Assembly: GCF_000315625.1 (NCBI RefSeq)
Contig: NW_005434400.1
Location: 1 to 36,229 of the forward strand
DNA: 36,229 nt
Direction of reading: 5' to 3'
Source of the DNA: Guillardia theta CCMP2712
Lineage: Eukaryota > Protista > Cryptophyta
Under the pieces are notes generated by a model. The model ran no database searches. It saw nothing but the letters and a program-made list of their open reading frames with translations, and was not told where the DNA came from. Made by a program: the position numbers and the translations under genes. Below, piece after piece: positions 8,343 to 36,229 of this stretch (positions are counted from its first letter, which is position 1; the number at the start of each line of letters is the position of its first letter).

Positions 8343-8691
8343 GACGATCATTGAATCTGCTAGTTCGTGTGCTATGGTCCTCACTTTCCCCTTGTAGCTC
8401 ATTGTCGCTTGGTCGGCAGCTGTTCTCGATGGCAAGCTTTCTACCTTAATGCCAGAGAGTCCGTACTTGAACCTGTAGAAGGTCTTTCTTGCTTGTCGGT
8501 CTCTTCGGAAGAGGTCAACTTGTTCAGGATCTCCTCTATGCTTGTGTGATGGGACACCTTCATTGAGCATGAGCTTTATTCATATGATACACGGAGTGCT
8601 GATAACCTACATTCGGTCCCTATATACATCGTTTTCTACATCTGTACACGTCGTCGCCTCTAAGGCGGTTGGAGCTGGCCCCGTCGCCTCC

Positions 8692-8907
8692 TCACAGCTG
8701 CATAGCCACCCCGTCCGCTGACTCGATCGTCCGCTTCTGCTGGATCATGAGGATGCTCGCGCGGAGGCAGGCCAGCTGCTTGGCCTTGGAGACGGTGGGA
8801 GCGTGTCGGTGCTTGTTACTGGGAGAGATGCTGGTGCGGGAGCTAGGCTGGGATGCAGAGGAGGAGAGGGGAGCGACGATGGTCTCGAGGGCAGGTACTT
8901 GCGCCAT
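8692..8907 (-). CDS. Microprotein type A, copy 1 (71 aa, MAQVPALETIV...KAKQLACLRASILMIQQKRTIESADGVAMQL)
   Basis: ATG in gccATGg context. C-terminal motif shared with type B through mostly synonymous codon differences. Confidence 0.75.
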   Translation of the reverse strand: MAQVPALETIVAPLSSSASQPSSRTSISPSNKHRHAPTVSKAKQLACLRASILMIQQKRTIESADGVAMQL

Positions 8908-9445
8908 GGCGTGGTCGGTGGAGGAGGAACGAGAGGGTTGAGTGGAGGGGAGAGAGGGAGCTCTATTTGAGGGCAACGGGCCACGAGACCTGGGGGGGGG
9001 AGGTAACGTGACGTCCGCAAGTCAGGTGGCATCCGGGGACAGGAAGTCACATGTCAAGGTGGTTCAAACAAGCAAGAGGTAACGTGATGTCTGAAAGTCA
9101 GGTGGCATCCGGGGACAGGGCCTTACAGGCTGTTGCAAAACGTTCATCTTTTTTACCACAAGGTAACCTGCAGATGACAGGAGGTAACGCTCTGACCCTT
9201 TCAAGATCTTGCAAAATTTTCAAACGGTGTGTTTGACAATGACTGCTGACTTTCAACCCTCTACAGGTATCGTGATCGTGATATGCCCTGATCCCTCTTC
9301 ATTTTTAGCATCCACCTCTGCCAGCCTTCTTGTTCCCCTGCCGTTCCACCACGAACCTGTTGGATCAGTCTGTCTTCAAGTTCCGATTGAGTGTGTTGCT
9401 CATATCCTTGCTTTTATCTTCTTACTGCTGTTTGAAGAAGTGCCA

Positions 9446-9670
9446 ATGACTCAAGCTCTGCAACTCGACGCTTCCATCTCCTCTCGATCACATCCTCAAA
9501 TCTCCAATTCATTGCCTGTCATCGCTCCTCTCAACTCCAGCCCAGCCCGTCCATCTGCCCCCGCCATCCTGGACAAGGCCAGGCAGCTCGCATGTCTTCG
9601 CGCAAGCATCCTCATGATCCAGCAGAAGCGCGCTGTCTACACTGCCGACGGCGTACCCATGCAGCTATGA
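9446..9670 (+). CDS. Microprotein type B' (74 aa, MTQALQLDAS...KARQLACLRASILMIQQKRAVYTADGVPMQL)
   Basis: Diverged paralog of type B that keeps the MTQAL start and an identical C-terminal half. Confidence 0.75.
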   Translation: MTQALQLDASISSRSHPQISNSLPVIAPLNSSPARPSAPAILDKARQLACLRASILMIQQKRAVYTADGVPMQL

Positions 9671-10181
9671 CAAAACAATCGCGATATTCTTATGTTTATT
9701 GCTTTGGTTGTCGCATGGATGGATTGTGGACATCACAACAAGCGTTGGCATGCTGATAAGCACAAATCACATTCCAATACGATTTTGGTAAGATACAATC
9801 TAGAAAACAGGTTAAAAAAACTGGAGAATAATTCACAGTAACGTAAAACGAATAAATTAGAGACAACACATTAAACAAAAATTGACATTTGTGTGAGGCT
9901 CCAGCGATGGCAATAGCGTGTCTCGCTCTCGCCATCTCATGCATGCGCTACATGCTTGATTCACGCCTCCACCCATAACGGTACAAGGACTGTTTACACA
10001 CTCACGAGCTGTGAGCGCATGTCTAGATGCGATCCTCGCACGCGCACGCGACAGCACATTTGGCTTTACTCTCATCGTCACTAGTATACAAGCTATGCTC
10101 GATCGCGTCCCGTCTCCCTCCAACACGTACAGCATAGCCTACACCTTCCTCCCGCTCACGCAGCGAGACTGTCCGTCCTTG

Positions 10182-10400
10182 TCATAGCTGCATGGGTACA
10201 CCATCGGCAGTGTAGACAGCGCGCTTCTGCTGGATCATGAGGATGCTTGCGCGAAGACATGCGAGCTGCCTGGCCTTGTCCAGGATGGCGGGGGCGGATG
10301 GACGGGCTTGGCTGGAGTTGGCGGGGGAGGGCAGTGGGCGGGAGGAGCGGGAGGCAGGGTGGGGGGCGTAGGCGGTGTCAAGGGAAAGAGCTTGCGTCAT
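10182..10400 (-). CDS. Microprotein type B, copy 1 (72 aa, MTQALSLDTAY...ADGVPMQL)
   Basis: ATG at 10400, conserved family motif. Confidence 0.75.
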   Translation of the reverse strand: MTQALSLDTAYAPHPASRSSRPLPSPANSSQARPSAPAILDKARQLACLRASILMIQQKRAVYTADGVPMQL

Positions 10401-10923
10401 GGATGAAGCAGGGAGGGCGAGGCTAAAGAGCTGACGGATGAAGCTGACAAGGGCTGGCGTCAACCAAGTGCAAACAAGCAACGTGGAGATAGGCGACAAG
10501 ATCTGGAGGAGCGAAGTCGGGGGAGCAACCCAAGAGGTGAGGTACTGGCAGTCAAATGTCGGGAAAGAGCACGAGACGGACAAACCAGGTGTGTAGTAAG
10601 AGGTGTCAGCAAGGCCTGACCTGGGGAGAAAGCGAACTTAAGAGAGTTGTAGATGCTTCGGCTGGTAGGGCTATACCTATGCGTAACGCATCGGTTCGAT
10701 AATGTCATGGTACCACCATGGCACTCTCAACTATGTCTGTCACGATACCGCTGATTGTAAAAGCTTTGTCATATATTCCTGTAAGGCCCTGTCCCCGGAT
10801 GCCACCTGACTTGCGGACCTCACGTTACCTCCCCCCCCCAGGTCTCGTGGCCCGTTGCCCTCAAATAGAGCTCCCTCTCTCCCCTCCACTCAACCCTCTC
10901 GTTCCTCCTCCACCGACCACGCC

Positions 10924-11139
10924 ATGGCGCAAGTACCTGCCCTCGAGACCATCGTCGCTCCCCTCTCCTCCTCTGCATCCCAGCCTAGCTCCTGCACCAG
11001 CATCTCCCCCAGTAACAAGCACAGACACGCTCCCACCGTCTCCAAGGCCAAGCAGCTGGCCTGCCTCCGCGCGAGCATCCTCATGATCCAGCAGAAGCGG
11101 ACGATCGAGTCAGCGGACGGGGTGGCTATGCAGCTGTGA
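10924..11139 (+). CDS. Microprotein type A, copy 2 (71 aa)
   Basis: Near-identical to 8692-8907. Confidence 0.75.
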   Translation: MAQVPALETIVAPLSSSASQPSSCTSISPSNKHRHAPTVSKAKQLACLRASILMIQQKRTIESADGVAMQL

Positions 11140-11902
11140 GGAGGCGACGGGGCCAGCTCCAACCGCCTTAGAGGCGACGACGTGTACAGATGTAGAAAAC
11201 GATGTATATAGGGACCGAATGTAGGTTATCAGCACTCCGTGTATCATATGAATAAAGCTCATGCTCAATGACGTGGGAGTGTGTGAGACAGGAGGAAGCT
11301 TGAGGGAGGAGAGAGGGACATGAGGGGGAGGGGGGAGGGAAGGGGCAGGCGAGGTAATGGGGGTAGGGCGAGACATGCAGGGTCAAGGGCCGTTGTTTTT
11401 GGTCTTGATTCCGGTTGAAAGGAGGCTCATGGTCGACGCAGCATTTAGATTCTCAATTTACCTTGTTTGTATACTCAGTCATGTCTTGATGAGTGCAAAG
11501 CAGCACATCTCAGTGTACCTCGGATATCGAAATTGATTGTCGGATAACTTCCGTCAGATAATGAGCTGGGAACCAGCAGCTGAGAAAGTTACAAAACGAG
11601 CTCAACGACTCAGCAAGGATCCCAACGAAAGTGATGACATATCTCGCTCTCGCCATCTCATGCATGCGCTACATGCTTGATTCACGCCTCCACCCATAAC
11701 GGTACAAGGACTGTTTACACACTCACGAGCTGTGAGCGCATGTCTAGATGCGATCCTCGCACGCGCACGCGACAACACATTTGACTTTACTCTCATCGTC
11801 ACTAGTATACAAGCTATGCTCGATCGCGTCCCGTCTCCCTCCAACACGTACAGCATAGCCTACACCTTCCTCCCGCTCACGCAGCGAGACTGTCCGTCCT
11901 TG

Positions 11903-12121
11903 TCATAGCTGCATGGGTACGCCGTCGGCAGTGTAGACAGCGCGCTTCTGCTGGATCATGAGGATGCTGGCGCGAAGACATGCGAGCTGCCTGGCCTTGT
12001 CCAGGATGGCGGGGGCGGATGGACGGGCTTGGCTGGAGTTGGCGGGGGAGGGAAGTGGGCGGGAGGAGCGGGAGGCAGGGTGGGGGGCGTAGGCGGTGTC
12101 AAGGGAAAGAGCTTGCGTCAT
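11903..12121 (-). CDS. Microprotein type B, copy 2 (72 aa)
   Basis: Near-identical to 10182-10400. Confidence 0.75.
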   Translation of the reverse strand: MTQALSLDTAYAPHPASRSSRPLPSPANSSQARPSAPAILDKARQLACLRASILMIQQKRAVYTADGVPMQL

Positions 12122-12617
12122 GGATGAAGCAGGGAGGGCGAGGCTAAAGAGCTGACGGATGAAGCTGACAAGGGCTGGCGTCAACCAAGTGCAAACAAGC
12201 AACGTGGAGATAGGCGACAAGATCTGGAGGAGCGAAGTCGGGGAAGCGACCAAAGAGGTGAGGTACTGGCAGTCAAATGTCGGGAAAGAGCACGAGACGG
12301 ACAAACCAGGTGTGTAGTAAGAGGTGTCAGCAAGGCCTGACTTGGGGAGATAGCGAACTTAAGAGAGTTGTAGATGCTTCGGCTGGTAGGGCTATACCTA
12401 TGCGTAACGCATCGGTTCGATAATGTCATGTTTCCACCATGGCACCTCAACTATGTCTGTCACGATACCGCTGATTGTAAAAGCTTTGTCATATATTCCT
12501 GTAAGGCCCTGTCCCCGGATGCCACCTGACTTGCGGACCTCACGCCCTTTGCCCTCAAATAGAGCTCCCTCTCTCCCCTCCACTCAACCCTCTCGTTCCT
12601 CCTCCACCGACCACGCC

Positions 12618-12833
12618 ATGGCGCAAGTACCTGCCCTCGAGACCATCGTCGCTCCCCTCTCCTCCTCTGCATCCCAGCCTAGCTCCTGCACCAGCATCTC
12701 CCCCAGTAACAAGCACCGACACGCTCCCACCGTCTCCAAGGCCAAGCAGCTGGCCTGCCTCCGCGCGAGCATCCTCATGATCCAGCAGAAGCGGACGATC
12801 GAGTCAGCGGACGGGGTGGCTATGCAGCTGTGA
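12618..12833 (+). CDS. Microprotein type A, copy 3 (71 aa)
   Basis: Near-identical to the other type A copies. Confidence 0.75.
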   Translation: MAQVPALETIVAPLSSSASQPSSCTSISPSNKHRHAPTVSKAKQLACLRASILMIQQKRTIESADGVAMQL

Positions 12834-13596
12834 GGAGGCGACGGGGCCAGCTCCAACCGCCTTAGAGGCGACGACGCGTACAGATGTAGATAACGATGTA
12901 TATAGGGACCGAATGTAGGTTATCAGCACTCCGTGTATCATATGAATAAAGCTCATGCTCAATGACGTGGGAGTGTGTGAGACAGGAGGAAGCTGAGGGA
13001 GGATAGAGGGACATGAGGGGGAGGGGGAAAGGGAAGGGGCAGGCGAGGTAATGGGGGTAGGGCGAGACCTGCAGGGTCAAGGGCCGTTGTTTTTAGTCTT
13101 GATTCCGGTTGAAAGGAGGCTCATGGTCGACGCAGCATTTAGATTCTCAATTTACCTTGTTTGTATACTCAGTCATGTCTTGATGAGTGCAAAGCAGCAC
13201 ATCTCAGTGTACCTCGGATATCGAAATTGATTGTCGGATAACTTCCGTCAGATAATGAGCTGGGAACCAGCAGCTGAGAAAGTTACAAAACGAGCTCAAC
13301 GACTCAGCAAGGATCCCAACGAAAGTGATGACATATCTCGCTCTCGCCATCTCATGCATGCGGTACATGCTTGATTCACGCCTCCACCCATAACGGTACA
13401 AGGACTGTTTACACACTCACGAGCTGTGAGCGCATGTCTAGATGCGATCCTCGCACGCGCACGCGACAACACATTTGACTTTACTCTCATCGTCACTAGT
13501 ATACAAGCTATGCTCGATCGCGTCCCGTCTCCCTCCAACACGTACAGCATAGCCTACACCTTCCTCCCGCTCACGCAGCGAGACTGTCCGTCCTTG

Positions 13597-13815
13597 TCAT
13601 AGCTGCATGGGTACGCCGTCGGCAGTGTAGACAGCGCGCTTCTGCTGGATCATGAGGATGCTGGCGCGAAGACATACGAGCTGCCTGGCCTTGTCCAGGA
13701 TGGCGGGGGCGGATGGACGGGCTTGGCTGGAGTTGGCGGGGGAGGGAAGTGGGCGGGAGGAGCGGGAGGCAGGGTGGGGGGCGTAGGCGGTGTCAAGGGA
13801 AAGAGCTTGCGTCAT
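13597..13815 (-). CDS. Microprotein type B, copy 3 (72 aa; A->V in motif, QLVCLR)
   Basis: Near-identical to the other type B copies. Confidence 0.75.
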   Translation of the reverse strand: MTQALSLDTAYAPHPASRSSRPLPSPANSSQARPSAPAILDKARQLVCLRASILMIQQKRAVYTADGVPMQL

Positions 13816-14345
13816 GGATGAAGCAGGGAGGGCGAGGCTAAAGAGCTGACGGATGAAGCTGACAAGGGCTGGCGTCAACCAAGTGCAAACAAGCAACGTG
13901 GAGATAGGCGACAAGATCTGGAGGAGCGAAGTCGGGGAAGCGACCAAAGAGGTGAGGTACTGGCAGTCAAATGTCGGGAAAGAGCACGAGACGGACAAAC
14001 CAGGTGTGTAGTAAGAGGTGTCAGCAAGGCCTGACTTGGGGAGATAGCGAACTTAAGAGAGTTGTAGATGCTTCGGCTGGTAGGGCTATACCTATGCGTA
14101 ACGCATCGGTTCGATAATGTCATGTTTCCACCATGGCACCTCAACTATGTCTGTCACGATACCGCTGATTGTAAAAGCTTTGTCATATATTCCTGTAAGG
14201 CCCTGTCCCCGGATGCCACCTGACTTGCGGACCTCACGTTACCTCCTCCCCCCAGGTCTCGTGGCCCAGTGGCCCTTTGCCCTCAAATAGAGCTCCCTCT
14301 CTCCCCTCCACTCAACCCTCTCGTTCCTCCTCCACCGACCACGCC

Positions 14346-14561
14346 ATGGCGCAAGTACCTGCCCTCGAGACCATCGTCGCTCCCCTCTCCTCCTCTGCAT
14401 CCCAGCCTAGCTCCTGCACCAGCATCTCCCCCAGTAACAAGCACCGACACGCTCCCACCGTCTCCAAGGCCAAGCAGCTGGCCTGCCTCCGCGCGAGCAT
14501 CCTCATGATCCAGCAGAAGCGGACGATCGAGTCAGCGGACGGGGTGGCTATGCAGCTGTGA
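14346..14561 (+). CDS. Microprotein type A, copy 4 (71 aa)
   Basis: Near-identical to the other type A copies. Confidence 0.75.
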   Translation: MAQVPALETIVAPLSSSASQPSSCTSISPSNKHRHAPTVSKAKQLACLRASILMIQQKRTIESADGVAMQL

Positions 14562-15002
14562 GGAGGCGACGGGGCCAGCTCCAACCGCCTTAGAGGCGAC
14601 GACGTGTACAGATGTAGATAACGATGTATATAGGGACCGAATGTAGGTTATCAGCACTCCGTGTATCATATGAATAAAGCTCATGCTCAATGACGTGGGA
14701 GTGTGTGAGACAGGAGGAAGCTGAGGGAGGAGAGAGGGACATGAGGGGGAGGGGGAAAGGGAAGGGGCAGGCGAGGTAACTGTGGGAGGACAGGACAGCC
14801 ATATTCATGTTTGGGTGTTTTAATCAAGTATTTTACCGCAGGGATTGAAAGCACGTTACTGCGCATGTGCAACATAATTTTATTTTTTTCGTGTTACTTT
14901 GACTTACGTTTGATGTTAGAGCCTGGCACAGTTCCTTAGCATAAAAACTCGACCCGGCGCGAGCGTCTGAAGGGCATTGAAGGCTAAAACATGAACTGGC
15001 AC

Positions 15003-25627: not shown

Positions 25628-28438
25628 TCATTGCTGTTGAGCGAGAGTTTGCTGAGCAGGGATGCATAGAGCCTGTCGAAGTAGATCAGTTGCAATTGGA
25701 ATGAAGATGCATTACCAGGAGAGAAGAGTCGTCAGACAGGTCTTTGATGACCCGTGCAATGATTTTCTTTCCCCCGATGTCCTCTACGTGCTTCCTTACG
25801 GTCTCATTCTTGAAGATCATCTTATGTATCGCCCAACATCCAAACATCTGCACTCGAGCGTTGCTCGGGTGCTGCTGCATGGACGCGAGGATAAGATCGG
25901 TGCCGCCATGCTCGAAGATCGCCCACTTGTTCTTGTCATTGTGCGCGAGGTTGAGCAGGGCGCGGCACCCGCTGATTTGAGCTTCTTGCATGTGGAACAG
26001 CAATCGCATGCCCCTGATGATGGTCTGGACCCCCTTGCTTCTCGCGAAGACAGTCTCAAACCGTTGGTCGGCCGCCATGTTCCCCATCACCTCGCAAGCT
26101 CGCGAGAAGACCAAGACATTGAGCGGGAACCTCGAGATTCCCTCCAGCAGCCTCTCCAACCCGCCGCCAAGCAGGATGTCTTGACTTGTCCCGCAGCAGG
26201 AGGCGATATTGGCGAGGGCTAAGCTGCAGTTAGCAACCACGTTCTCATCCTTGCGGTATCGTTGGAAGGCAGAGAGGATGTTGGGGATGCCACCGATCTT
26301 ATAGATGCGCTTGATGACGGACTCGTGCATGGCCAGCACGCCCAGCACGTAACACGACCTTGACTGCACCGCCGCGCTGCCGCCATGCAGTTCCATGAGC
26401 TTGACCAGGAGGTCGATTCCGCTGCCAGCGACGAGTCTTGTCTTGCTTCCCTCGTTCCTGGTCACCAGCGTCGCGATGGTTTCCAGACAGTGATCACTGA
26501 CCTGTGCCAGATGTCATCTTGCATGATAGAGAGGAAGAGACGAACAGTCGCAGAGTTGAGGTGCATCTTGATGGCATCTAAGGCCATTTCAACTCCAGTG
26601 TCTTCCCCTTGCTTTCTCTTCGCCGATGGATCAGATCCTGAAAAAATGTCATACATGAATCATGGTGAATCATCGTATTCATATCCTACTGATCATCTTC
26701 CGCATCAGTTGACACCCAACTTCTTGTATCTACGAAAGCATTAGCAGTTCCTCCGAACTTCATCACTTCACTCACTTGTGCCTTTTCCATGTGCCTTCGC
26801 ATCGTGCTGATCAGCACCTCGTACTCTCTAGACTGCAGCAACCTTTGAGAAACAAGGGGAAAGGGCTCAATGAGAATCAGCTCGTTGAACGAGCAGCCAA
26901 CGAGCTGAAGATTGCTTGAGTCCTGAGCGACGAGGTTGATCATGTACTTGACCTTTTCTGCGGGTGTAAAATCCTTGTGCCTCATCGGCAGAAATTCATC
27001 GCAGTATCTCGATTTTGACTGCTTGACAGCCGCGTCGACCGCGTTGCGAATGTAATCTGAGTAATGGGAGAGGATGAGGAAAATGAGAAACAAGACCACC
27101 AAACTGATCATGTTTGTTCGGCGATCACTTTTGATGATTGTGATAGACTTGATCTGTTCTCTCCCTGCCATGATGTTCGACAGACGGGCTGTAGCCTTTG
27201 TATTCCCTTTTCTCTTTCGTAAGCTGCTGGAAGATTTCTGGTTTTCTCTTTGTTCATGCTGGAGTTGAGAGATTGTCTGTGGCAGGTAAGGAGCAGATGA
27301 AATTTTTTCTTCGTTAGAAATGTTTGTAAGCAAGAAAGTCAAAGAAATTTTGCTGAACTTGGGTCTTGATGCAGCAACTTGTTGGCAGCATGAAAGTATC
27401 AATTCCCAGAGGTCGGCAGGACATCTACTGGGCTTGGACAGTCTGACTCCCGATAGGATGGCGTGTTTCACTTGGTCTTCCTTGGAGCAATGAGAATAAG
27501 GCTCGATGCCATCTGACAAGATCTGCCATGTGACGACCCCGAAGGCCCAGACGTCGCTCTCAGCTGTAAACGTTGAAGTTCTGATGCTCTCAGGCGACCT
27601 GCGGCGGTAGGAAACCGAGGGCGGATCAGGAGACGGCGGCAGCAGAGAGGATACACTGGACTCTTGCGCTGGATGCCGCATGAGCAAACCGAAATCCGAC
27701 AGTTTGATGGACGTTGAAGAGATGTCTTCTTGTTCTAACCGCAAGCATAAAATGTTCTCTAGCGAAAGATTCCCATGAACTAGGCCGCCGCCATGTAAAG
27801 CTTCCATGCCTGCTACGATCTGAAGCAGAATGACCCTCATATGTGTCAGGCTTAGAGCTTTAGTTTTGATGCTTTCCTGTAACGTTTTACCAGAGCAAAA
27901 TTCATTCACCAGGTAGTTGCTGTTCTGATTGAAGCTCGTGCCAAGCACTTCGACTAGGCGGGGATGTCTGCTAATCTGCATGAGCAGCGAAACTTGCTCC
28001 ACGCAGCAGAGAGGATGCAATTTGACGACGGTGACTTGTCGTTGGCTTTGATTTGTCTTCATGCTGCCTTTGTACACCTGGTTGCCTTGCCGGACGCCAA
28101 GAAAGGTTGAGAGCTCAAGCGACGAGAATTGAATCTGCGATATCTTTTTACCTTCTAACCACTCGAGAATGCTTGTTCTTATTGCATGGTTGGGAATGAG
28201 ATTTTGATTTTGAAGCTCAAGGCCCGTCGAAGGACTCAGATTACTTCTTTTCAACCTGCGCAAACTGAGTTAGCTTGAGTGTATCCGGGGGGGTGTGAAC
28301 AAACCATTCTTCGATTGCTCGTCGCTCATAACAGTAGCCATCAGCTGTTGAAACAGGGTCTTCCATAACCTCACCTGTGATGGGACAAACAAACGAGAAG
28401 GGGAGATCTGCATCTTCCCGCTTGTGGCTTTCATTCAT
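25628..28438 (-). CDS. U-box + tyrosine-kinase-like (pseudo)kinase + TM helix + armadillo-repeat protein, multi-exon
   Basis: U-box (FVCPITGEVMEDPVSTADGYCYERRAIEEW...SPSTGLELQNQNLIPNHAIRTSILEW); kinase (HPRLVEVLG, VHGNLSLENIL, KLSDFGL, SPE, SDVWAFGVVTWQI); TM ISLVVLFLIFLIL; ARM repeats (GCRALLNLA, GGTDLILASMQQH). Confidence 0.88.
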
Positions 28439-29344
28439 CTGTCTTGTAGGTTTGCTTTGATTTATAAGTGCTCTGGGTTTTGATTTAAATAGGATAGAGA
28501 GCTTTCTTTTGATTCTTTCATTGCAAGGTTTGATGTTATTGCCTTGTTGATGTGGTTTTGTTCCTCGCTTCTTGTCCTGCTAAGACCATCTAACATGTTC
28601 ACCATTCTCCCATCGCAACTACAAATGTGACTACCTATCAATGATTTTATTTTTGACTGGATGCCTTTTACTCAAGCGCCTAGTGGCTAAGTGACACAAA
28701 CCTTCGGCACCTTTTTGCCGTTTTCAGATGGTTTTGCCTTAGAGGGGCCTGAAAATGAAGGGTGGGGGTAGTCCTACTACGGGTATTCTGAATAGATCAA
28801 AGATAGGGTGAATACTTGCCATTGCTGGGGGGGGGGGGGGTACTGGCCTTCCCGGGAAATGGCGCGCATGATATTTTTGAGTTTCTGTTCAATTTTCACT
28901 GCATTATACTATCTATCTTGATTCAACATCTCAATTGGAAAGAGTTTCTAGAATATGATATGAGCGAAATTGTGTCTTTTTCATTAGGTCTTCTCAGTTT
29001 AAAACCCAACTGTCGCAGTGGAGTACGTTCATTACTTGATTGCAGGTTTGGAGAATGAGTATTCCATCCATCACTGGTATGATCTTTCACGCTGCTCTGG
29101 TCTCCCTCGAGTTAGTAAAGACCTCAACATTTTTGGAATGCTCACTCCGCACTCCTCACATCCTCTTGCCTGCTGCGATATTGCAATGGGTTCTCCTGAT
29201 TCACCTGCCGCGTGTGCATGTCTCTGAGTAATTGTCTTGCTTCTCAGTCGAGATAGGCCTCTTCCACGCTTGAAAATGTTTCAGTGATCATCAACATTTT
29301 GGTGTGAGGTACCCCAATCACTTTCCTTACCATCTCCTTCTAGA

Positions 29345-29406
29345 GTTTAGGGTTTAGGGTTTAGGGTTTAGGGTTTAGGGTTTAGGGTTTAGGGTTTAGG
29401 GTTTAG
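29345..29406 (+). repeat. Interstitial telomeric tract (TTTAGGG)n, ~9 units
   Basis: Direct reading. Confidence 0.98.
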
Positions 29407-29473
29407 AGGGAGCCTGAGGCAGCTCAGGAGGAGAGCGAGGGAGCCTGAATTTACAGACCTGGAGAGGATCACA

Positions 29474-30055
29474 ATGGAGGCAGCATCTCCGTCAAGCCAA
29501 GAGGACATGCAGCTCGTCAGCGAGCTGTCAGCAGTCATCGAAGATGCAGCTTCTTTGAACGAGACGGGGACGAGCGAGCCGATCAAGCTGGTCCTGGACA
29601 AGGCTGTTGGCAACCTCCACGACACCTTCTACTCTCCGGGGAGCCTGGAGTTCATGTCGCTGGGAGAGTGGGCGAAGACGCCAGAGGAGCAGGGAGTGGG
29701 ACGCAACGTTCTCAAGGAGAAGCTGGGGAAGTGGCTGCAGAGCAAGCGCTGGACTCGCGTGCAAGGAGAGAGCAAGAAGGCAAGGAGGGGCAGCGCGTTC
29801 TCGCCACGGGCAACGGCAGCTGCTGAGCTTGAGCAGGAGGCGGAGAGCGACGACATCGAGCGTCGATCTCTTAGCTTCCTGTTCATAGCACTGAGTAAAT
29901 TCGCAGAGATGCATGTGCTGGCCTGCTCGCTGAAGGTGGACAAGAAGGACCGACTGCGGGTGGAGATGAGGGAAGATGATGAAGAAGAGGAAGACATTGA
30001 GGAAGAGCAAGGCGAGGGCGAGGAAGAAGACGGGGCGAGCCCGTACCGAGCTTGA
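29474..30055 (+). pseudogene. C-terminal 193-aa fragment of the telomeric element ORF (acidic tail)
   Basis: Begins with the same MEAASPSSQEDMQLVSELSAVIEDAASLNE found at the end of ORF 31559-32314, and ends like 34634-34747. Confidence 0.7.
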
Positions 30056-30082
30056 GCTGAGCTCAAGGTAAGGAGAGAAGGT

Positions 30083-30296
30083 AGGAGGCGACCGAAGGCC
30101 AAGGTGAGGAGAGGCAACTCTCCTGATTGAGGCTGAGGAAGCTGAATGGAGGAGGAGTAGGTGGCGACCGAAGGCCAAGGTGAGGAGAGGCAACTCTCCT
30201 GACTGAGGCTGAGGAAGCTGAAGGGAGGAGGAGTAGGTGGCGACCGAAGGCTCAAGGTGAGGAGAGGCAACTCTCCTGACTGAGGCTGAGGAAGCC
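30083..30296 (+). repeat. 3 x 76-bp tandem repeat in the element 3' UTR, each with an AGGAGAG-GCAA-CTCTCCT hairpin (repeated again at ~34775-34987)
   Basis: GGCGACCGAAGG recurs at 30087, 30163 and 30239. Confidence 0.9.
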
Positions 30297-30447
30297 AAGA
30301 GAAGACAGCAGAAGTAGAAAGTAGAAAGAGACCTCAGAAGCAGGGTTCGCATTGTAGGCCGTGTACTCCCAGTGCTCGCGCACCTCTTTAGACTAGGATC
30401 AAATTGCAAAAGCCCACAAGGAGGCCGAGCAACATTCTAGCATTCTA

Positions 30448-30464
30448 AGGGTTTAGGGTTTAGG
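30448..30464 (+). repeat. Short telomeric tract separating the two element copies
   Basis: AGGGTTTAGGGTTTAGG. Confidence 0.9.
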
Positions 30465-30614
30465 AGGCGCCGTTATTTTCGGCAGGCGCCGTTATTTTCG
30501 GCAGGCGCCGTTATTTTCCGGGCAGCATGGCTCCTCGCCAGGTGTAGGGGAAGCCGCCAGGGCGCCAAGGAAGCTGCAAGCGAGAGGTTTGTATACTTCA
30601 AATAGCTTTCTAAG

Positions 30615-32304
30615 TATGGTTCTTCAGTATGATGAAAATGTTCGCAACCTGCTGTATCGGAGATCATGCCAATACACGCAGAGCGGACTTGTGGATGCCT
30701 CTGTCCTCGAAGCTGATCTCGTCGAGAGGGTGAAGAGCTTCGCGAAGCGTTATCCGAACAGCAGGACAGCCCAGGCTTGCAAGGCTGTCCCCGGAGGGAT
30801 GCACCCCCGACGCTATCGCAGAAGCCATCCGCTCGACATGTCAGCAGGCACGACGTGAGCTTCTACAAGAAGCAATGACTGGATGGAGTGACGCATCCAG
30901 AGAGTGGTTTATGCAGCAGATTGAAGAAGCCAAGAAGGAGAAGGTCGAGACATACACCGCCTCAGCAGGCAACGAGGTGACTTCCTTCATCTCCATGACT
31001 CTCCTGGGCATCTCCTCGGTGTATGTCAACCATGAAGAGAAGTTGAAGAAGAAATTCGAAGAGATCGGACTGATCGTAGACTCAGTGCAAGAGAGTAAAG
31101 CAATCATGTGGAAGGCTCCGTATAGACCCGAGATAGCGAGTGCTGAGGAGATCCCGGTGACTGTTTCCTTCCTCCGCAATGCACAAGCGGAGAAGCTCTG
31201 GCAGGGAAGAGAGGACTTCGCGATCGATGGTCGCAAGACGGTTCACAGCTGTACATGTGAGCATCGTGCACGATCGATCTTTCAAGATTCGAGCCAAGAG
31301 AGGACCCTGGGGCAAAGGGGGCAGCTTGGCAGAGCTGACCCACCTGTTAACCTTGGGCGGCATGACAACGGCTGAGATAGCTGCCGTCTATCGCTATCAG
31401 CTGCTGCGCCAGTCCCTTGCAGCGGTCCAACTCCAGCCGCTGGCCGGCATGCTGGTCGCTGGGGCGCCAGCCTGAGGACAGCAAGTCCACAAAGGCTTAA
31501 GTTAGGTCAGAAAGGCTTCGTCGCTGTAGGGGCCAACGTCATCTGGAGACAGAGGGAGGTGGAGTGGATCGTCTCCTCGAGCTGCCCAGAGGCGAATGAT
31601 ACAGCATTTCGAGCTTTCCGAGAGAGCGAAGCGATGGAGGGAGTACACCTGACTCTGTTCAGCGAGGACCCGAAGATCAGAGAGGCGCTCGCAGTCGAGT
31701 TGACAGCTGATCGCTTTGTGTCCAGAAATAAGTTGAAGAAGGCATCAAGGATGCAGAAGAAGGCAGGCGGCAAGGACGGCAAGGAGATCAAGATCATCAT
31801 CAAGTCGACGGCGGCATCTGGTCGCTTCACGAGGAAGGAGATGGAGGGGCTGTGCAACGGCGGCAACACGTCCATCGCAAGAGTCAAGAGAGTCTTGTTG
31901 GAGATCGCTAACAGGCTCGAGATCAAAGTTGAAGGCATCGACATGGAGGAGGATTTGAACACCAAGTCCTGGAACGGGTCCAAGCTATGCATCCTCCTCG
32001 GCTCCACGGAGGATGCTCGATGCATGATGAAGCAGCTGCCCTTCTCTCTAGAAGGCGCAGCAACCAAGCTCGAAGCAGTCGGCTTCGACAAGGAGCCTGA
32101 GGCGGCTGGTCAGCGGGGCACCAGCGACGCAGCGCAGCGACAGGAGGAGAGCGAGGGAGAGTGGCTGGAGTTTACAGACCTGGAGAGGATCACAATGGAG
32201 GCAGCATCTCCGTCAAGCCAAGAGGACATGCAGCTTGTCAGCGAGCTGTCAGCAGTCATCGAAGATGCAGCTTCTTTGAACGAGGCGGGGACGAGCGAGC
32301 CGAT
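30615..32304 (+). pseudogene. Frameshifted 5' part of the telomeric element ORF (ORF1/gag-like role inferred)
   Basis: Consecutive same-strand ORF pieces 30589-30858, 30875-31375, 31179-31475 and 31559-32314. Reading continues at 34280 after removing the insertion. Confidence 0.6.
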
Positions 32305-34276
32305 CATTCTGTAGGATTTTGGGCAGGTAGGCATATACGCTATCTTGTAGGGTAGTCCCTGGGAATCGAGGGGTGGTTTAGGGATTTCAGTTATTTGTAC
32401 CTGGTAATTTGAGACCTTACGAAATTGATTTGAAATGTTCACTAGAATAATTTTTATTTGTCGATATAACAGTACAAAATGAAAAATATTTTATTTTGCT
32501 GCCTCCTTGTCCTTTACCGCTGGCATGATGCAAACCATCTGCAGTGGACCATGGATGAGAAGCAGTTGAGAGAGACAATGACACAGGTGAATCAGAAGCC
32601 CAACATGCATGTGTGCTGGAAGGCTTGCGACGGATGTGTGATTCGGAAGCTTACATGTGTGCTTTGAGTTTTTCAATGAGAGTTTTCCTCCAAAATATTT
32701 TATTTTGCTGCCTCCTTGTCCTTTGCTGATGTGGACCATTGGATGAGAAGCAGTTGAGAGAGACAATGACACAGAAGGTATCGCAGATATCTGGAAGCCA
32801 TGCAGCCCAATGATCGTTGTGAGAACATTCAAACGGATAATCTCCCTGTTTCACTTCCCTTGTTACAACACTGCGCGCTGGAGAGTTCACAGATACTCTG
32901 CAGAGATGACTAGCTTCTCAAGAGACTTTCAGATAGAATTCCAGCAAGAAAAGCATGCAGGCTTGATTTTGACATATATATTCCTGAATTCAAATGAATA
33001 ATTGCTCTGTCGCAGAAAATTATTGTTGATGCAAAGCTTGACATCTGACTTGCAGCGAAAAGCAGCACACTTGCTGCTCAGATGCAGAGATGTTAAACCA
33101 ATCTTTATTTGAGAGGACCCTCAACTTTGGTTTAGTAAACTATCATTAAGCTCAAATTCAATCTACCATATTGAGTGGAGGAGGTTATCTAACATATGGA
33201 AACACACTCTGACAATCTGATTATTACGATCAGAAAATCTCAAGTGTTGCATGAATCAGTATCGTAGACCATAAATTTTATAGGAGAACATCCGCTTCGC
33301 ACCTGCCTAGAACATTTAAAATGAGGCTACCTACATCTGATTGATGGTACAATGCAGCTATGAGGAAAGCTTAACGCATTTGGGAAATTTCCTCAAATTT
33401 TTCCTGGCCCAAACTTTCTTCATTGTCACGAGTCTTTCCATACCATCTTCGAAGAAGCAACATCCTCTTCATACATTTACATGTGTCCATGCTTCTTCAT
33501 ACGTTTGCATGTGTCCATGTTAACTGTTGCAGGTTCTGACAGAAATCCTGTGTAAACCTCAGAGTAAACCTCAGAATGTGCTTCATAGGGGTTGGGAAGG
33601 TAAATATGACTGGTCATCTGCAGGAAAATCTTCAAGGCTATTCAAAACTTTCCAAACATGAGGAGGATACGATTTATCCTAGACAAACACATGACGACAA
33701 CTCCTTGCGTTGTGTTGCTCCCGGCATGTAACATGCCAAAGCCCCATTGACGGTGAAATTCGCATCCTTGCTTGCCATGCAGTGTTGCTTGTAGAAAGAG
33801 AGTGCTTGGGATCGCGAGAGACTCTGCTCAATCATCACAATCTCATGCTCTGTTGTAGAATGATGCCATTCCAAACATGAATCCTCTTTGGCTGCGGTGG
33901 GACGATTTCCACCCTCCCCACATAGATTTTGGGGTAAGCAGTACAGGTATGTTGTGACATTCTGTACGGGATTGGAAGTTCCTGGTAACAATATGTAAAC
34001 ATCATGTATGTGTTTATATATATAAAAATAAATAAAACGCAAATAATACAAATGTCTAACTGACTCATACAAAAATAGCTATGAGATATTTGAACAAAAA
34101 CACGCTGTATTAAAAACTAATTCAACGACCCCTCTCAAACAATCCAGGTACCACCACCCCCTTATTCAGGGGAAACCACCGGGTCATTAGTCATAACCGG
34201 TACTGGGAGATCGAGAACTGACAAAAAGCCACTTTTCCGAATTCCTGGTTTTTCCTGGGCGAAATCCTACAGAATG
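32305..34276. mobile_element. 1972-bp TIR DNA transposon (non-autonomous or decayed), 3-bp TSD GAT
   Basis: Left end CATTCTGTAGGATTTTGGGCAGG versus reverse complement of right end CATTCTGTAGGATTTCGCCCAGG (20/23 match). GAT at 32302-32304 and 34277-34279. Empty site GAGCCGATCAAGCTGG present in copy 1 (~29576-29591). Confidence 0.92.
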
Positions 34277-35166
34277 GATCAAGCTGGTCCTGGACAAGGC
34301 TGTTGGCAACCTCCACGACACCTTCTANNNNNNNNNNNNNNNNNNNNNNNNNNNNNNNNNNNNNNNNNNNNNNNNNNNNNNNNNNNNNNNNNNNNNNNNN
34401 NNNNNNNNNNNNNNNNNNNNNNNNNNNNNNNNNNNNNNNNNNNNNNNNNNNNNNNNNNNNNNNNNNNNNNNNNNNNNNNNNNNNNNNNNNNNNNNNNNNN
34501 NNNNNNNNNNNNNNNNNNNNNNNNNNNNNNNNNNNNNNNNNNNNNNNNNNNNNNNNNNNNNNNNNNNNNNNNNNNNNNNNNNNNNNNNNNNNNNNNNNNN
34601 NNNNNNNNNNNNNNNNNNNNNNNNNNNNNNNNNGGACAAGAAGGACCGACTGCGGGTGGAGATGAGGGAGATGATGAGAGAGGAGACATGGAGGAAGAGC
34701 AAGGCGAGGGCGAGGAAGAAGACGGGGCGAGCCCGTACCGAGCTTGAGCTGAGCTCAAGGTAAGGAGAGAAGGTAGGAGGCGACCGAAGGCCAAGGTGAG
34801 GAGAGGCAACTCTCCTGATTGAGGCTGAGGAAGCTGAATGGAGGAGGAGTAGGTGGCGACCGAAGGCCAAGGTGAGGAGAGGCAACTCTCCTGACTGAGG
34901 CTGAGGAAGCTGAAGGGAGGAGGAGTAGGTGGCGACCGAAGGCCAAGGTGAGGAGAGGCAACTCTCCTGACTGAGGCTGAGGAAGCCAAGAGAAGACAGC
35001 AGAAGTAGAAAGTAGAAAGAGACCTCAGAAGCAGGGTTCGCATTGTAGGCCGTGTACTCCCAGTGCTCGCGCGCCTCTTTAGACTAGGATCAAATTGCAA
35101 AAGCCCACAAGGAGCCGAGCAACATTCTAGCATTCTAATAAACTCACATAATAATGATAATAATAA

Positions 35167-35246
35167 TAGGGTTTAGGGTTTAGGGTTTAGGGTTTAGGGT
35201 TTAGGGTTTAGGGTTTAGGGTTTAGGGTTTAGGGTTTAGGGTTTAG
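35167..35246 (+). repeat. Interstitial telomeric tract (TTTAGGG)n, ~11 units
   Basis: Direct reading. Confidence 0.98.
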
Positions 35247-35381
35247 TTTTGCTGATATCTTCTTCTTCCTCCATGCTCTCTGTATCTTCGTGGCAGCCAT
35301 CCTCTTACGAGCTGCCGATGTCGTGTACCTTGTAACATTTGCACGACTATAGTTCTTTTTCGATCGCCAACCAAACGGCAT
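35247..35381 (-). pseudogene. Truncated N-terminus of a putative capsid protein (MPFGWRSKKNYSRANVTRYTTSAARKRMAATKIQRAWRKKKISAK)
   Basis: ATG in aaaATG context 6 nt after the Rep-frame TAA. 45 open, very basic codons run straight into telomeric repeats. Absent from the ORF track because it is under 60 aa. Confidence 0.65.
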
Positions 35382-35387
35382 TTTGTA

Positions 35388-35996
35388 TTACATCCAACGG
35401 CTGCTTATATACTCGGCAACATCTAAACGTTCACCCCAGTACTTCGCAAGCTAATGCTCACAAAGAATCTTGATGTTAGGAGGGCGCATTTTTCCTTCAG
35501 CCAGATAATACTGGAAAGCATAATAGCACACACGCTTGTGCAGCTCACCGGGCGTCCAGCTTTCAGTGTCTCCGCCGATCTTTTCAGCGATATACTCGCC
35601 AGGCTTGGATTGTAGCTCGTCTCTGTGTTCATTCGACTTCTCGTACAACTCTTGCAAATCTTCATCACTGAATCCTTGCTTATATATCACCACCGACGTT
35701 GGAAGCTCCTTGGCCATGTACTGAAACCCAACTTCATCCGCTTCTAGCTTTCGCCGCTTCACTGGCCTACTCTTCGGATCTTGTTTACGGCGATAATGCT
35801 CCATCGCAAGATCGCCAATATAGTTACGCCACTGTTCTTCCGTCTTCGGTGCCTTCAACTCTCCTTGAATGTGACAATGGTCACCTCCCTTCTTCTCAAG
35901 CATCACAAGACACTTGTTATCTCCAAACAAATCATTGCAAACTGAAGCATAATCCATGGATGGATCGTATGGCTTCACTATCAGGTGTGCCAACAT
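35388..35996 (-). CDS. rep: HUH-superfamily rolling-circle Rep endonuclease (single Tyr, no helicase). 181 aa to TAG at 35451-35453, then 20 more in-frame codons to TAA at 35388
   Basis: Motif I-like AHLIVKP, motif II with upstream Glu (VMLEKKGGDHCHIQG; H40-C-H42), motif III FQYMAKE (Y93xxK), helical C-terminus, no Walker A/B. Confidence 0.82.
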
Positions 35997-36019
35997 CTCT
36001 TGGGTTAACGCTAGTGGGT

Positions 36020-36140
36020 CCCCTTAAATAGACTTTCCCCCTGGACACGTGTCCACCCTTGTTGCGTAACGGTTCTGTAACGGCTCGCCACTTCCTCGCC
36101 ACTTCATCGCCCTCATTCACCGCAGTAAGTCACTACCTAC
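36020..36140 (-). promoter_or_regulatory. Putative promoter/origin region of the HUH element
   Basis: Minus-strand TATTTAA ~30 nt upstream of the Rep ATG, perfect 14-bp palindrome TGGACACGTGTCCA (36042-36055), short direct repeats GTAACGG x2 and CGCCACTTC x2. Confidence 0.45.
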
Positions 36141-36229
36141 TTAGGGTTTAGGGTTTAGGGTTTAGGGTTTAGGGTTTTAGGGTTTAGGGTTTAGGGTTTA
36201 GGGTTTAGGGTTTAGGGTTAGGTTAGGTT
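36141..36229 (+). repeat. Terminal telomeric tract (TTTAGGG)n
   Basis: Runs to the window end with the G-rich strand pointing outward. Confidence 0.98.

Follow-up and report, generated by a model that had tools for sequence, protein, structure and literature searches.

An 894 bp insert of unique DNA, embedded in telomere repeats at the end of the window (the whole 36,229-nucleotide stretch of DNA analysed), is likely to be a fragment of a circular virus of about 1.9 kb with a single-stranded genome. The replication protein (Rep) of this virus has no SF3 helicase, and the distal end of the insert is placed directly after what is likely to be the nick site of the viral origin. On balance, it is considered that the fragment was captured from a rolling-circle intermediate of this helicase-less-Rep virus at the chromosome end of a cryptophyte.

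The insert occupies positions 35247 to 36140 and is flanked on both sides by (TTTAGGG)n tracts (35167-35246 and 36141-36229). These are in the same orientation and the distal tract reaches the end of the window. The coordinates and tract ends agree with an earlier, preliminary description of the sequence as unique DNA between two telomere tracts. The GC content of the insert is 0.475, against 0.513 for the window. Within the window, insert-like sequence is absent apart from one 15-nt match, thus the insert is present there as a single copy. No repeat is common to both insert ends and terminal direct repeats are absent. The minus strand of the insert contains 144 nt of non-coding DNA, followed by rep and the start of a very basic ORF. 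The rep gene starts at an ATG at 35996 and has 181 codons to a TAG at 35453-35451, with another 20 codons in frame to a TAA at 35390-35388. The second ORF, which had also been noted before, is present on the same strand, with its ATG at 35381, 6 nt past the TAA of rep, and has 45 codons before the telomere truncates it. The features of the insert and its flanks are listed in Table 1.

Table 1. Features of the telomeric insert and of the tracts on either side of it, by position in the window.
Feature	Position	Strand	Basis or remark
Proximal telomere tract, (TTTAGGG)11.4, last bases ...GGGTTTAG; putative former chromosome end	35167..35246	+	
Second viral gene, first 45 codons (basic N-terminal arm, likely capsid), cut by the telomere	35247..35381	-	capsid at that position in relatives
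rep, 202-codon helicase-less HUH endonuclease (E34, H40, H42, Q44, Y93, K96) with C-terminal helical domain, as predicted by the model	35388..35996	-	
Premature, derived TAG at rep codon 182; last 20 residues lost	35451..35453	-	also in 2011 run X2
TATA-like box TATTTAA upstream of rep; putative function	36024..36030	-	sequence
14-bp palindrome, candidate Rep-binding iteron region	36042-36055	-	sequence
7-nt direct repeat pair, candidate Rep-binding iterons	36066-36072 and 36077-36083	-	sequence
11-nt direct repeat pair, candidate Rep-binding iterons	36084-36105	-	sequence
Origin hairpin 3' arm; first insert base directly after conserved loop TTTTAT (likely nick site)	36131..36140	-	
Distal telomere tract, putative new telomere	36141..36229	+	to window end

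The Rep encoded in the window holds E34..H40-C-H42-I-Q44-G and Y93-M-A-K96. Conservation of these residues was counted in 158 family proteins of at least 165 aa, a set that included one cluster (P0166) later treated as a non-member. E34 is conserved in 83%, H40 in 97%, H42 in 97%, Q44 in 84%, Y93 in 97%, and K96 in 95%, with G45 also within the range of 84 to 97%. The motifs are therefore not due to chance. In the same proteins residue 4 is H in 80% and residue 92 is Q in 91%. The preliminary description had reported YMAK and HCH motifs. The former is present as Y93-M-A-K96, but the metal site is more likely to be E34/H42/Q44 (HUQ) than HCH, because H42-x-Q44-G aligns with the H-F-Q-G of nanovirus Rep, albeit weakly (E 0.044).

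The predicted structure of the Rep (pLDDT 87.7) consists of a nuclease domain with five strands, together with a long helix and a small helical domain. In this model, H40, H42, and Q44 are on strand 3 (residues 39-46) and Y93 is on a helix (residues 88-93). The top 8 structural matches are all viral Rep nucleases, with mutually consistent Z-scores of 7.3 to 8.6 that are moderate by the structure tool's own scale. The best match is AAV5 Rep (Z 8.6, rmsd 3.7, 127 aligned), and duck circovirus Rep is also among them (Z 8.2, rmsd 2.5, 88 aligned). From BFVD there are 51 matches at E<=0.001, the best 50 of these 51 being 188 to 286 aa; nearly all are unnamed short viral proteins and a few are named replication proteins. 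The Atlas places the Rep next to viral clusters, and those with a phylum assignment are mostly Cressdnaviricota. The HUH Rep fold expected from the motifs is thus supported by the model, which predicts a ferredoxin-like HUH nuclease. Sequence searches of Pfam and PDB with the protein or a close alignment gave chance-level matches only, and no family member is above any Pfam Rep cut-off. Among 142 members, the matches below the cut-offs are to Viral_Rep (6), REP_ORF2-G2P (4), and Replitron_HUH (2). Rep_OBD is unmatched among the 25 of 37 families listed and in the 124 proteins scanned.

The TAG at codon 182 of rep is a derived nonsense codon, a lesion missed in the preliminary description, because a free Rep that is 97% identical to that of the window is 202 aa with no stop at this position and because codon 182 is a sense codon in all of the environmental contigs counted there (8/8 from run X10 and 6/6 from run X11). 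The sense codon in these free relatives rules out a non-standard genetic code as the reason for the TAG.

A search with the 181-aa product identified 21 matches among 39 candidates. These are the product itself, 19 proteins on short contigs, and one protein labelled Hanusia phi. All 19 of the non-self matches for which there is a contig size are on contigs of 1.07 to 2.01 kb. A profile search of 1.84 billion representatives identified 172 matches (clusters at 50% identity), with sizes of 87 to 288 aa among the 150 that are listed. None of 7,994 longer candidates scored with the family profile, which according to the tool is weak evidence alone, and Walker A is absent from all frames of 14 out of 14 related loci. 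These short proteins, without longer scoring candidates and without Walker A, bear out the description of the Rep as helicase-less, and judging by its sequences the whole family is without the SF3 helicase. A scan that took one genome from each of 185,579 prokaryote species gave no relative, a search of viral_contigs with P0171 gave no close relative, and a pattern scan of viral_contigs gave no match to a 24-mer of the hairpin.

Some candidate matches were rejected. A 15-mer pattern has 12 matches in viral_contigs, all in contigs of 4.6 to 380 kb, and these were taken as chance. A Walker-A-like string in P0168 is outside the Rep-matching part and was dismissed. The 173-aa proteins of the P0166 cluster, whose contigs reach 48.8 kb, are similar to this Rep family in the C-terminal helical domain only. 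The cluster matches only profile positions 138-196, either by chance or through a shared domain, and was used neither in alignment A3 nor in the tree.

For comparison, 14 related loci (L001-L014) were fetched. Half of these (7/14) close as circles of 1,791 to 2,001 nt by exact terminal repeats. A complete second large ORF, on the same strand as rep or the opposite strand, is present in 12 of the 14. Of six second genes scanned, one matches Circo_capsid (L012, E 1e-24), one has a weak match to the STNV coat protein, and four match nothing. The closest complete relative is L006, which has a Rep 69% identical to that of the window and a second gene 7 nt behind rep, compared with 6 nt in the insert. 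The product of this second gene models as a jelly roll, with a low mean pLDDT (55.4), and the model matches nanovirus, geminivirus, picornavirus, and STNV capsids and many CRESS capsids. As a capsid is encoded at that position in the relatives, the second ORF of the insert is likely to be the start of a capsid gene. The 45-aa fragment alone has no capsid match. Its IQ match (E 0.0047) is under the cut-off and, like its Atlas matches (<=0.79), identifies nothing. IQ-like basic arms occur in the capsids of ssDNA viruses. The proposal of a small circular DNA virus lineage with a helicase-less HUH Rep and a capsid gene is upheld by these relatives, which are jelly-roll-capsid circles of about 1.8 to 2.0 kb.

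The 97% identical free Rep is found on contigs of up to 1,851 nt; the existence of such close free viruses had also been missed in the preliminary description. Swarms of relatives are present in the sediment run X10 (66 contigs) and the soil run X11 (44 contigs); runs X19 and X20, with insert-word shares of 0.14 and 0.06, are outside this comparison. Among the 40 differences listed, out of 142 between the insert and its free relatives, 29 are coding. Of those listed in rep, 12/16 are synonymous, and of those listed in the second ORF, 9/13 are at third codon positions. Both frames are therefore real genes. One member of the family has been deposited as AXH74352.1, 'putative replicase [Cressdnaviricota sp.]', which corresponds to P0175 in the P0016 cluster, with 55% identity to the Rep of the window. 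Its accession series is presumably that of Tisza et al. 2020.

Several other observations were made on the related loci. The Reps of L011, L012, and L013 are nearly identical (end branches of 0.017-0.03), yet the capsid of L012 is of the circovirus type and those of L011 and L013 are of another type, which points to capsid swapping among them. The layout is ambisense in L002-L005 and L014 and unisense in L001 and L006-L013. Several of the ambisense members have acidic N-terminal extensions on the Rep (250-290 aa). The L005 contig (L005:1-4611) is a tandem of units of about 1.95 kb that are 87-96% identical and contain two different rep genes; it is likely to be a concatemer or a chimera of circles.

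A hairpin with a TTTA(T/A/G) loop is present at the start of rep in 9 of the 14 loci, with no such hairpin found by the scan in the other 5. The 10 nt directly after the loop motif TTTTAT of L006 are identical to the first 10 nt of the insert. Two X10 contigs run past 36140 with the complement of the missing half-hairpin, and an X11 contig has 36056-36140 without a difference and continues for 12 nt further. Based on the 10 nt shared with L006 and the continuation of these contigs, the insert ends exactly after the conserved loop TTTTAT. The chance of one of two random ends landing in a 10-nt loop is about 1%. Viral Reps are described in part of PMC7826260 as cutting the hairpin loop with a preference for T at -4 and -1. 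TTTTAT^G has T at both -1 and -4 and is likely to be the nick site on the rep-sense strand. That the distal end is at this likely nick site was absent from the preliminary description. Packaged genomes of such viruses are closed circles, and an end positioned at the origin therefore implies replication where the capture happened. With the junction exactly after the loop, it was probably a rolling-circle intermediate that was captured, one produced in a cryptophyte nucleus.

It is possible to propose how this capture came about. The free virus would be a minimal two-gene rolling-circle replicon. Its Rep, with E34/H42/Q44 as metal site and Y93 as catalytic tyrosine, would cut the rep-sense strand at TTTTAT^G within the hairpin loop, and unwinding would be provided by a host or helper helicase. 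A helicase from the host or elsewhere is suggested, in part of PMC10288648, for the helicase-less Replitrons, IS200/IS605, and IS91. With the Rep-nicked strand present in the nucleus, the 3' end of the telomere G-strand (...TTTAG) would acquire viral sequence, beginning within the capsid gene, either through priming on the displaced Rep-nicked strand or through end-joining to a broken replicative form. Copying would pass through rep and halt at the end of the template, which would be the nick, and telomerase would re-cap the nick-side end. The nonsense codon may have been gained after capture or captured with the copy, and the insert would now be a passenger. Telomere extension of this kind would fix the orientation and both ends of the insert, with no new chemistry needed. 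The last bases of the proximal tract, GGGTTTAG, are in the phase expected from a CTAAACCCT template, although this template is that of plants and may not be that of cryptophytes. The plant telomerase template is given as CTAAACCCT in part of PMC6765143; no cryptophyte telomerase template is given in the available portion of PMC8287931.

The insert is likely to link an unclassified virus group to a cryptophyte host. Evidence for the host includes the flanking telomere repeat, TTTAGGG. In addition, frameshifted pieces of the Rep family are found in transcripts labelled Hanusia phi (P0023 and P0092, one label only), of which one is 93% identical to the free Rep P0007. This second cryptophyte link was missed in the preliminary description. 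The Hanusia phi pieces and the Rep of the window are in the same 31-row clade (SH-aLRT 95), on different branches of a quick version of the tree that has 67 chosen rows and no outgroup, is unrooted, and in which the Hanusia pieces cover about one third of the columns. The sequences of the pieces suggest two separate cryptophyte encounters, because they sit on another branch of the same clade. Being unrooted and without an outgroup, the tree is silent on the root and on Replitrons. Elsewhere in the window, an armadillo-repeat gene (25686-26513, minus strand) has Guillardia theta as the source of its sole named homologue (45%). This gene also has a 95% identical match on an environmental contig of 3,046 nt (P0178), thus close relatives of the host occur in a metagenome.

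Capture at a chromosome end, as first proposed, has in its favour the telomere flanks on both sides and the origin-precise end. As a single event is known, the telomere targeting proposed alongside it is no more than a possibility. Against capture, no independent record examined bridges either junction, with the insert-bearing contig of X1 being outside the set. Between 30 and 100% of the insert words are present in 14 runs from 2011-2021, belonging to four studies and labelled organism A or B. One of these runs is possibly the source of the window, and X1 may be that run. In run X2, from 2011, a contig of 247 nt corresponds to 35247-35493 with 0 differences and includes the nonsense codon. 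This contig has a depth of 2.2 and stops exactly at 35247, with no telomeric letters, although unitigs ordinarily continue into a repeat. It may stop there due to two continuations at this position, from a second or longer viral copy or from mixed cells, or due to the low depth.

CRESS viruses are defined by an HUH nuclease fused to an SF3 helicase, according to portions of PMC7000223 and PMC6668415. The relatives of the insert share with the CRESS-DNA viruses (Cressdnaviricota; nearest are the Arfiviricetes, with the circo-, nano-, and smacoviruses) a two-gene circle of about 1.9 kb, a Y1 HUH nuclease with Glu..HUQ, a stem-loop origin, a single jelly-roll capsid, and the occurrence of both unisense and ambisense layouts. 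However, the Rep of the family is about 200 aa and without the helicase on which the definition of the phylum depends. The loop of the family, (A/C)TTTTAT^G with its predicted cut, differs from the TAGTATT^AC-type nonanucleotide of CRESS viruses. Deposited unclassified circles (AXH74352.1 and unnamed BFVD entries) are of the same family or short-Rep fold class, but they have no host and no description of them as a helicase-less group was found. The RepB of the pE194/pMV158 family likewise has a nuclease and a helical domain with no helicase, and among the Atlas feature neighbours Rep_OBD is on 10-74% of members. However, these plasmids are bacterial and capsid-less, no relative of the family was found in the prokaryote genomes, and pMV158 RepB (Z 5.8) is below the viral Rep nucleases in the structural ranking against the Rep of the window. 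The endogenous CRESS elements of Liu et al. 2011 (PMC3198968) are similar, in the part of that paper seen, in being viral rep fragments with a stop codon that serve as a fossil record of the host. Unlike these, the insert has an origin-precise end, a telomere site, and a 97% identical free relative; 'telomer', 'nonanucleotide', and 'stem-loop' are absent from the available main text of PMC3198968.

The insert could have arisen by other routes than extension of the telomere. The Rep itself may have linked the 3'-OH of the telomeric C-strand (CCCTAA-3') to the 5' end left by the nick, with imprecise resolution of the capsid-side end, which would be the chemistry of Helitron, IS91, and Replitron transposases. 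As with rolling-circle transposases (Craig 2023, PMC10288648, in part), one end is truncated and the other is precise, at the origin. Telomeric CCCTAA occupies the place of viral TTTTAT on the rep-sense strand, and the loops of L001 and L014 end in TAA. Such strand transfer is nevertheless unlikely, given that CCCTAA is without the T-1 and T-4 preferred by viral Reps, that the freest telomere 3'-OH is that of the G-strand, where joining gives the opposite orientation, and that only one copy is known. It is also rather doubtful that, in a broader scheme, the helicase-less Rep viruses are a lineage of family or order level that infects cryptophytes and other protists, represents the capsid-bearing state of the ancestors of Replitrons, and has a Rep that joins the genome to the telomere. 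If this is true, the insert is a viral Rep caught acting as a transposase. The suggestion that the element is intermediate between CRESS viruses and Replitrons holds for the architecture. Replitrons, as described in part of PMC10288648, are present in some cryptophytes and have a helicase-less Y1 Rep with HUQ, an upstream Glu, and a helical second domain. It does not hold so well for the sequence, where Replitron_HUH matches 2/142 members (E<=0.05) against 6/142 for Viral_Rep, the best score being 16.9 bits where the cut-off is 28.5. Motifs I and III also differ. The Replitron link of the family is therefore weak. If the insert were itself a telomere-targeting, Replitron-like transposon with an unrelated basic ORF acquired, this would fit the shared architecture, with its single Tyr, and the match of P0081 to Replitron_HUH (E 0.0086, under the cut-off, over profile positions 16-122 of 128). 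Such an origin is very improbable, and the 97% identical Rep, on contigs of no more than 1,851 nt, goes far towards refuting it. The relatives are capsid-bearing circles, whereas the same part of PMC10288648 describes Replitrons as multicopy, copy-and-paste transposons with short terminal direct repeats and the transposase as their sole recognised gene, and describes no capsid for them. The insert has no such repeats and a single copy in the window, and the family has H-x-x-K and QYxxK instead of the SUTU and GYxxK of Replitrons, with no member above the Pfam cut-off.

It is also to be considered that there was no capture, the insert being a chimera made in the library or assembly from telomeric reads and a virus that persists in or contaminates the culture. 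The missing bridging record, the X2 contig that ends at the junction without telomeric letters, and the repeat-rich scaffold end with a gap would all be in keeping with this. However, it is improbable, as there is no sequence common to virus and telomere by which an assembler could be misled at the distal junction, a random join would not break at the origin, and both flanks are telomere in the same orientation. Furthermore, the nonsense allele is in both the window and the 2011 run X2, whereas the environmental contigs counted there are all sense at that codon. If the capture is real, the cryptophyte might still not be the natural host, the virus being that of a co-occurring or ingested organism. 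The closest free relatives are from soil and sediment metagenomes that are not obviously rich in cryptophytes, which is a mild point against a cryptophyte host, and the family spans many habitats, with one member deposited only as 'Cressdnaviricota sp.' Against this, the genomes are packaged as closed circles, so the origin end implies replication at the place of capture, and a second cryptophyte label, Hanusia phi, carries the same clade. Another host is thus quite improbable.

Capture of a rolling-circle intermediate at a cryptophyte chromosome end is therefore preferred. Helicase loss in CRESS viruses has been treated in two papers as unseen or nearly so, including in the part available of Kazlauskas et al. 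The literature searched, mostly open-access main texts, describes neither a CRESS-type virus group without a helicase nor a CRESS insertion in a telomere. No helicase-less group is named in the portion of PMC7000223 seen, and neither such a group nor a telomeric insertion is in the portions seen of PMC3198968, PMC12220804, PMC12911909, PMC8307498, and PMC10581178. Such genomes are already deposited in databases. As far as the searches reach, it is the combination of the helicase-less lineage, its likely cultured eukaryotic host, the 97% identical free virus, and the origin-precise telomere junction that is undescribed.

The capsid-associated helicase-less Reps, in at least 172 clusters, would be either a precedent for helicase loss or an early branch in which the helicase was never present. 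The insert provides the family with a eukaryotic host that is likely to be culturable, a 97% identical free virus, and what may be a natural footprint of the nick site. The borrowing of a helicase, the position of the Rep cut, and the descent of Replitrons from such viruses are now testable. An origin-precise viral end inside a telomere suggests a route by which rolling-circle intermediates enter chromosomes.

The remainder of the window contains other repeated sequences. Internal telomere tracts (29341-29406, about 30448-30464, and 35167-35246) lie between repeated subtelomeric units. The sequence at 29938-30448 is 98% identical to 34634-35138, and that at 29425-29585 recurs at 32141-32306. 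A 76-bp tandem repeat is present in both large subtelomeric copies and a 19-bp tandem is present at 30465-30518. Three ORFs in 29341-35166 have no Pfam match above chance and an Rfam scan of 28500-36229 found nothing. This chromosome end (29341-35166) appears to be built in layers and may have had a telomere-associated element added in rounds. Further from the end, at 8560-14821, there are three tandem copies of a unit of about 1.7 kb and, at 8560-9673, a partial copy in inverted orientation. The short ORFs of these repeats share the C-terminal motif 'QLACLRASILMIQQKR'.
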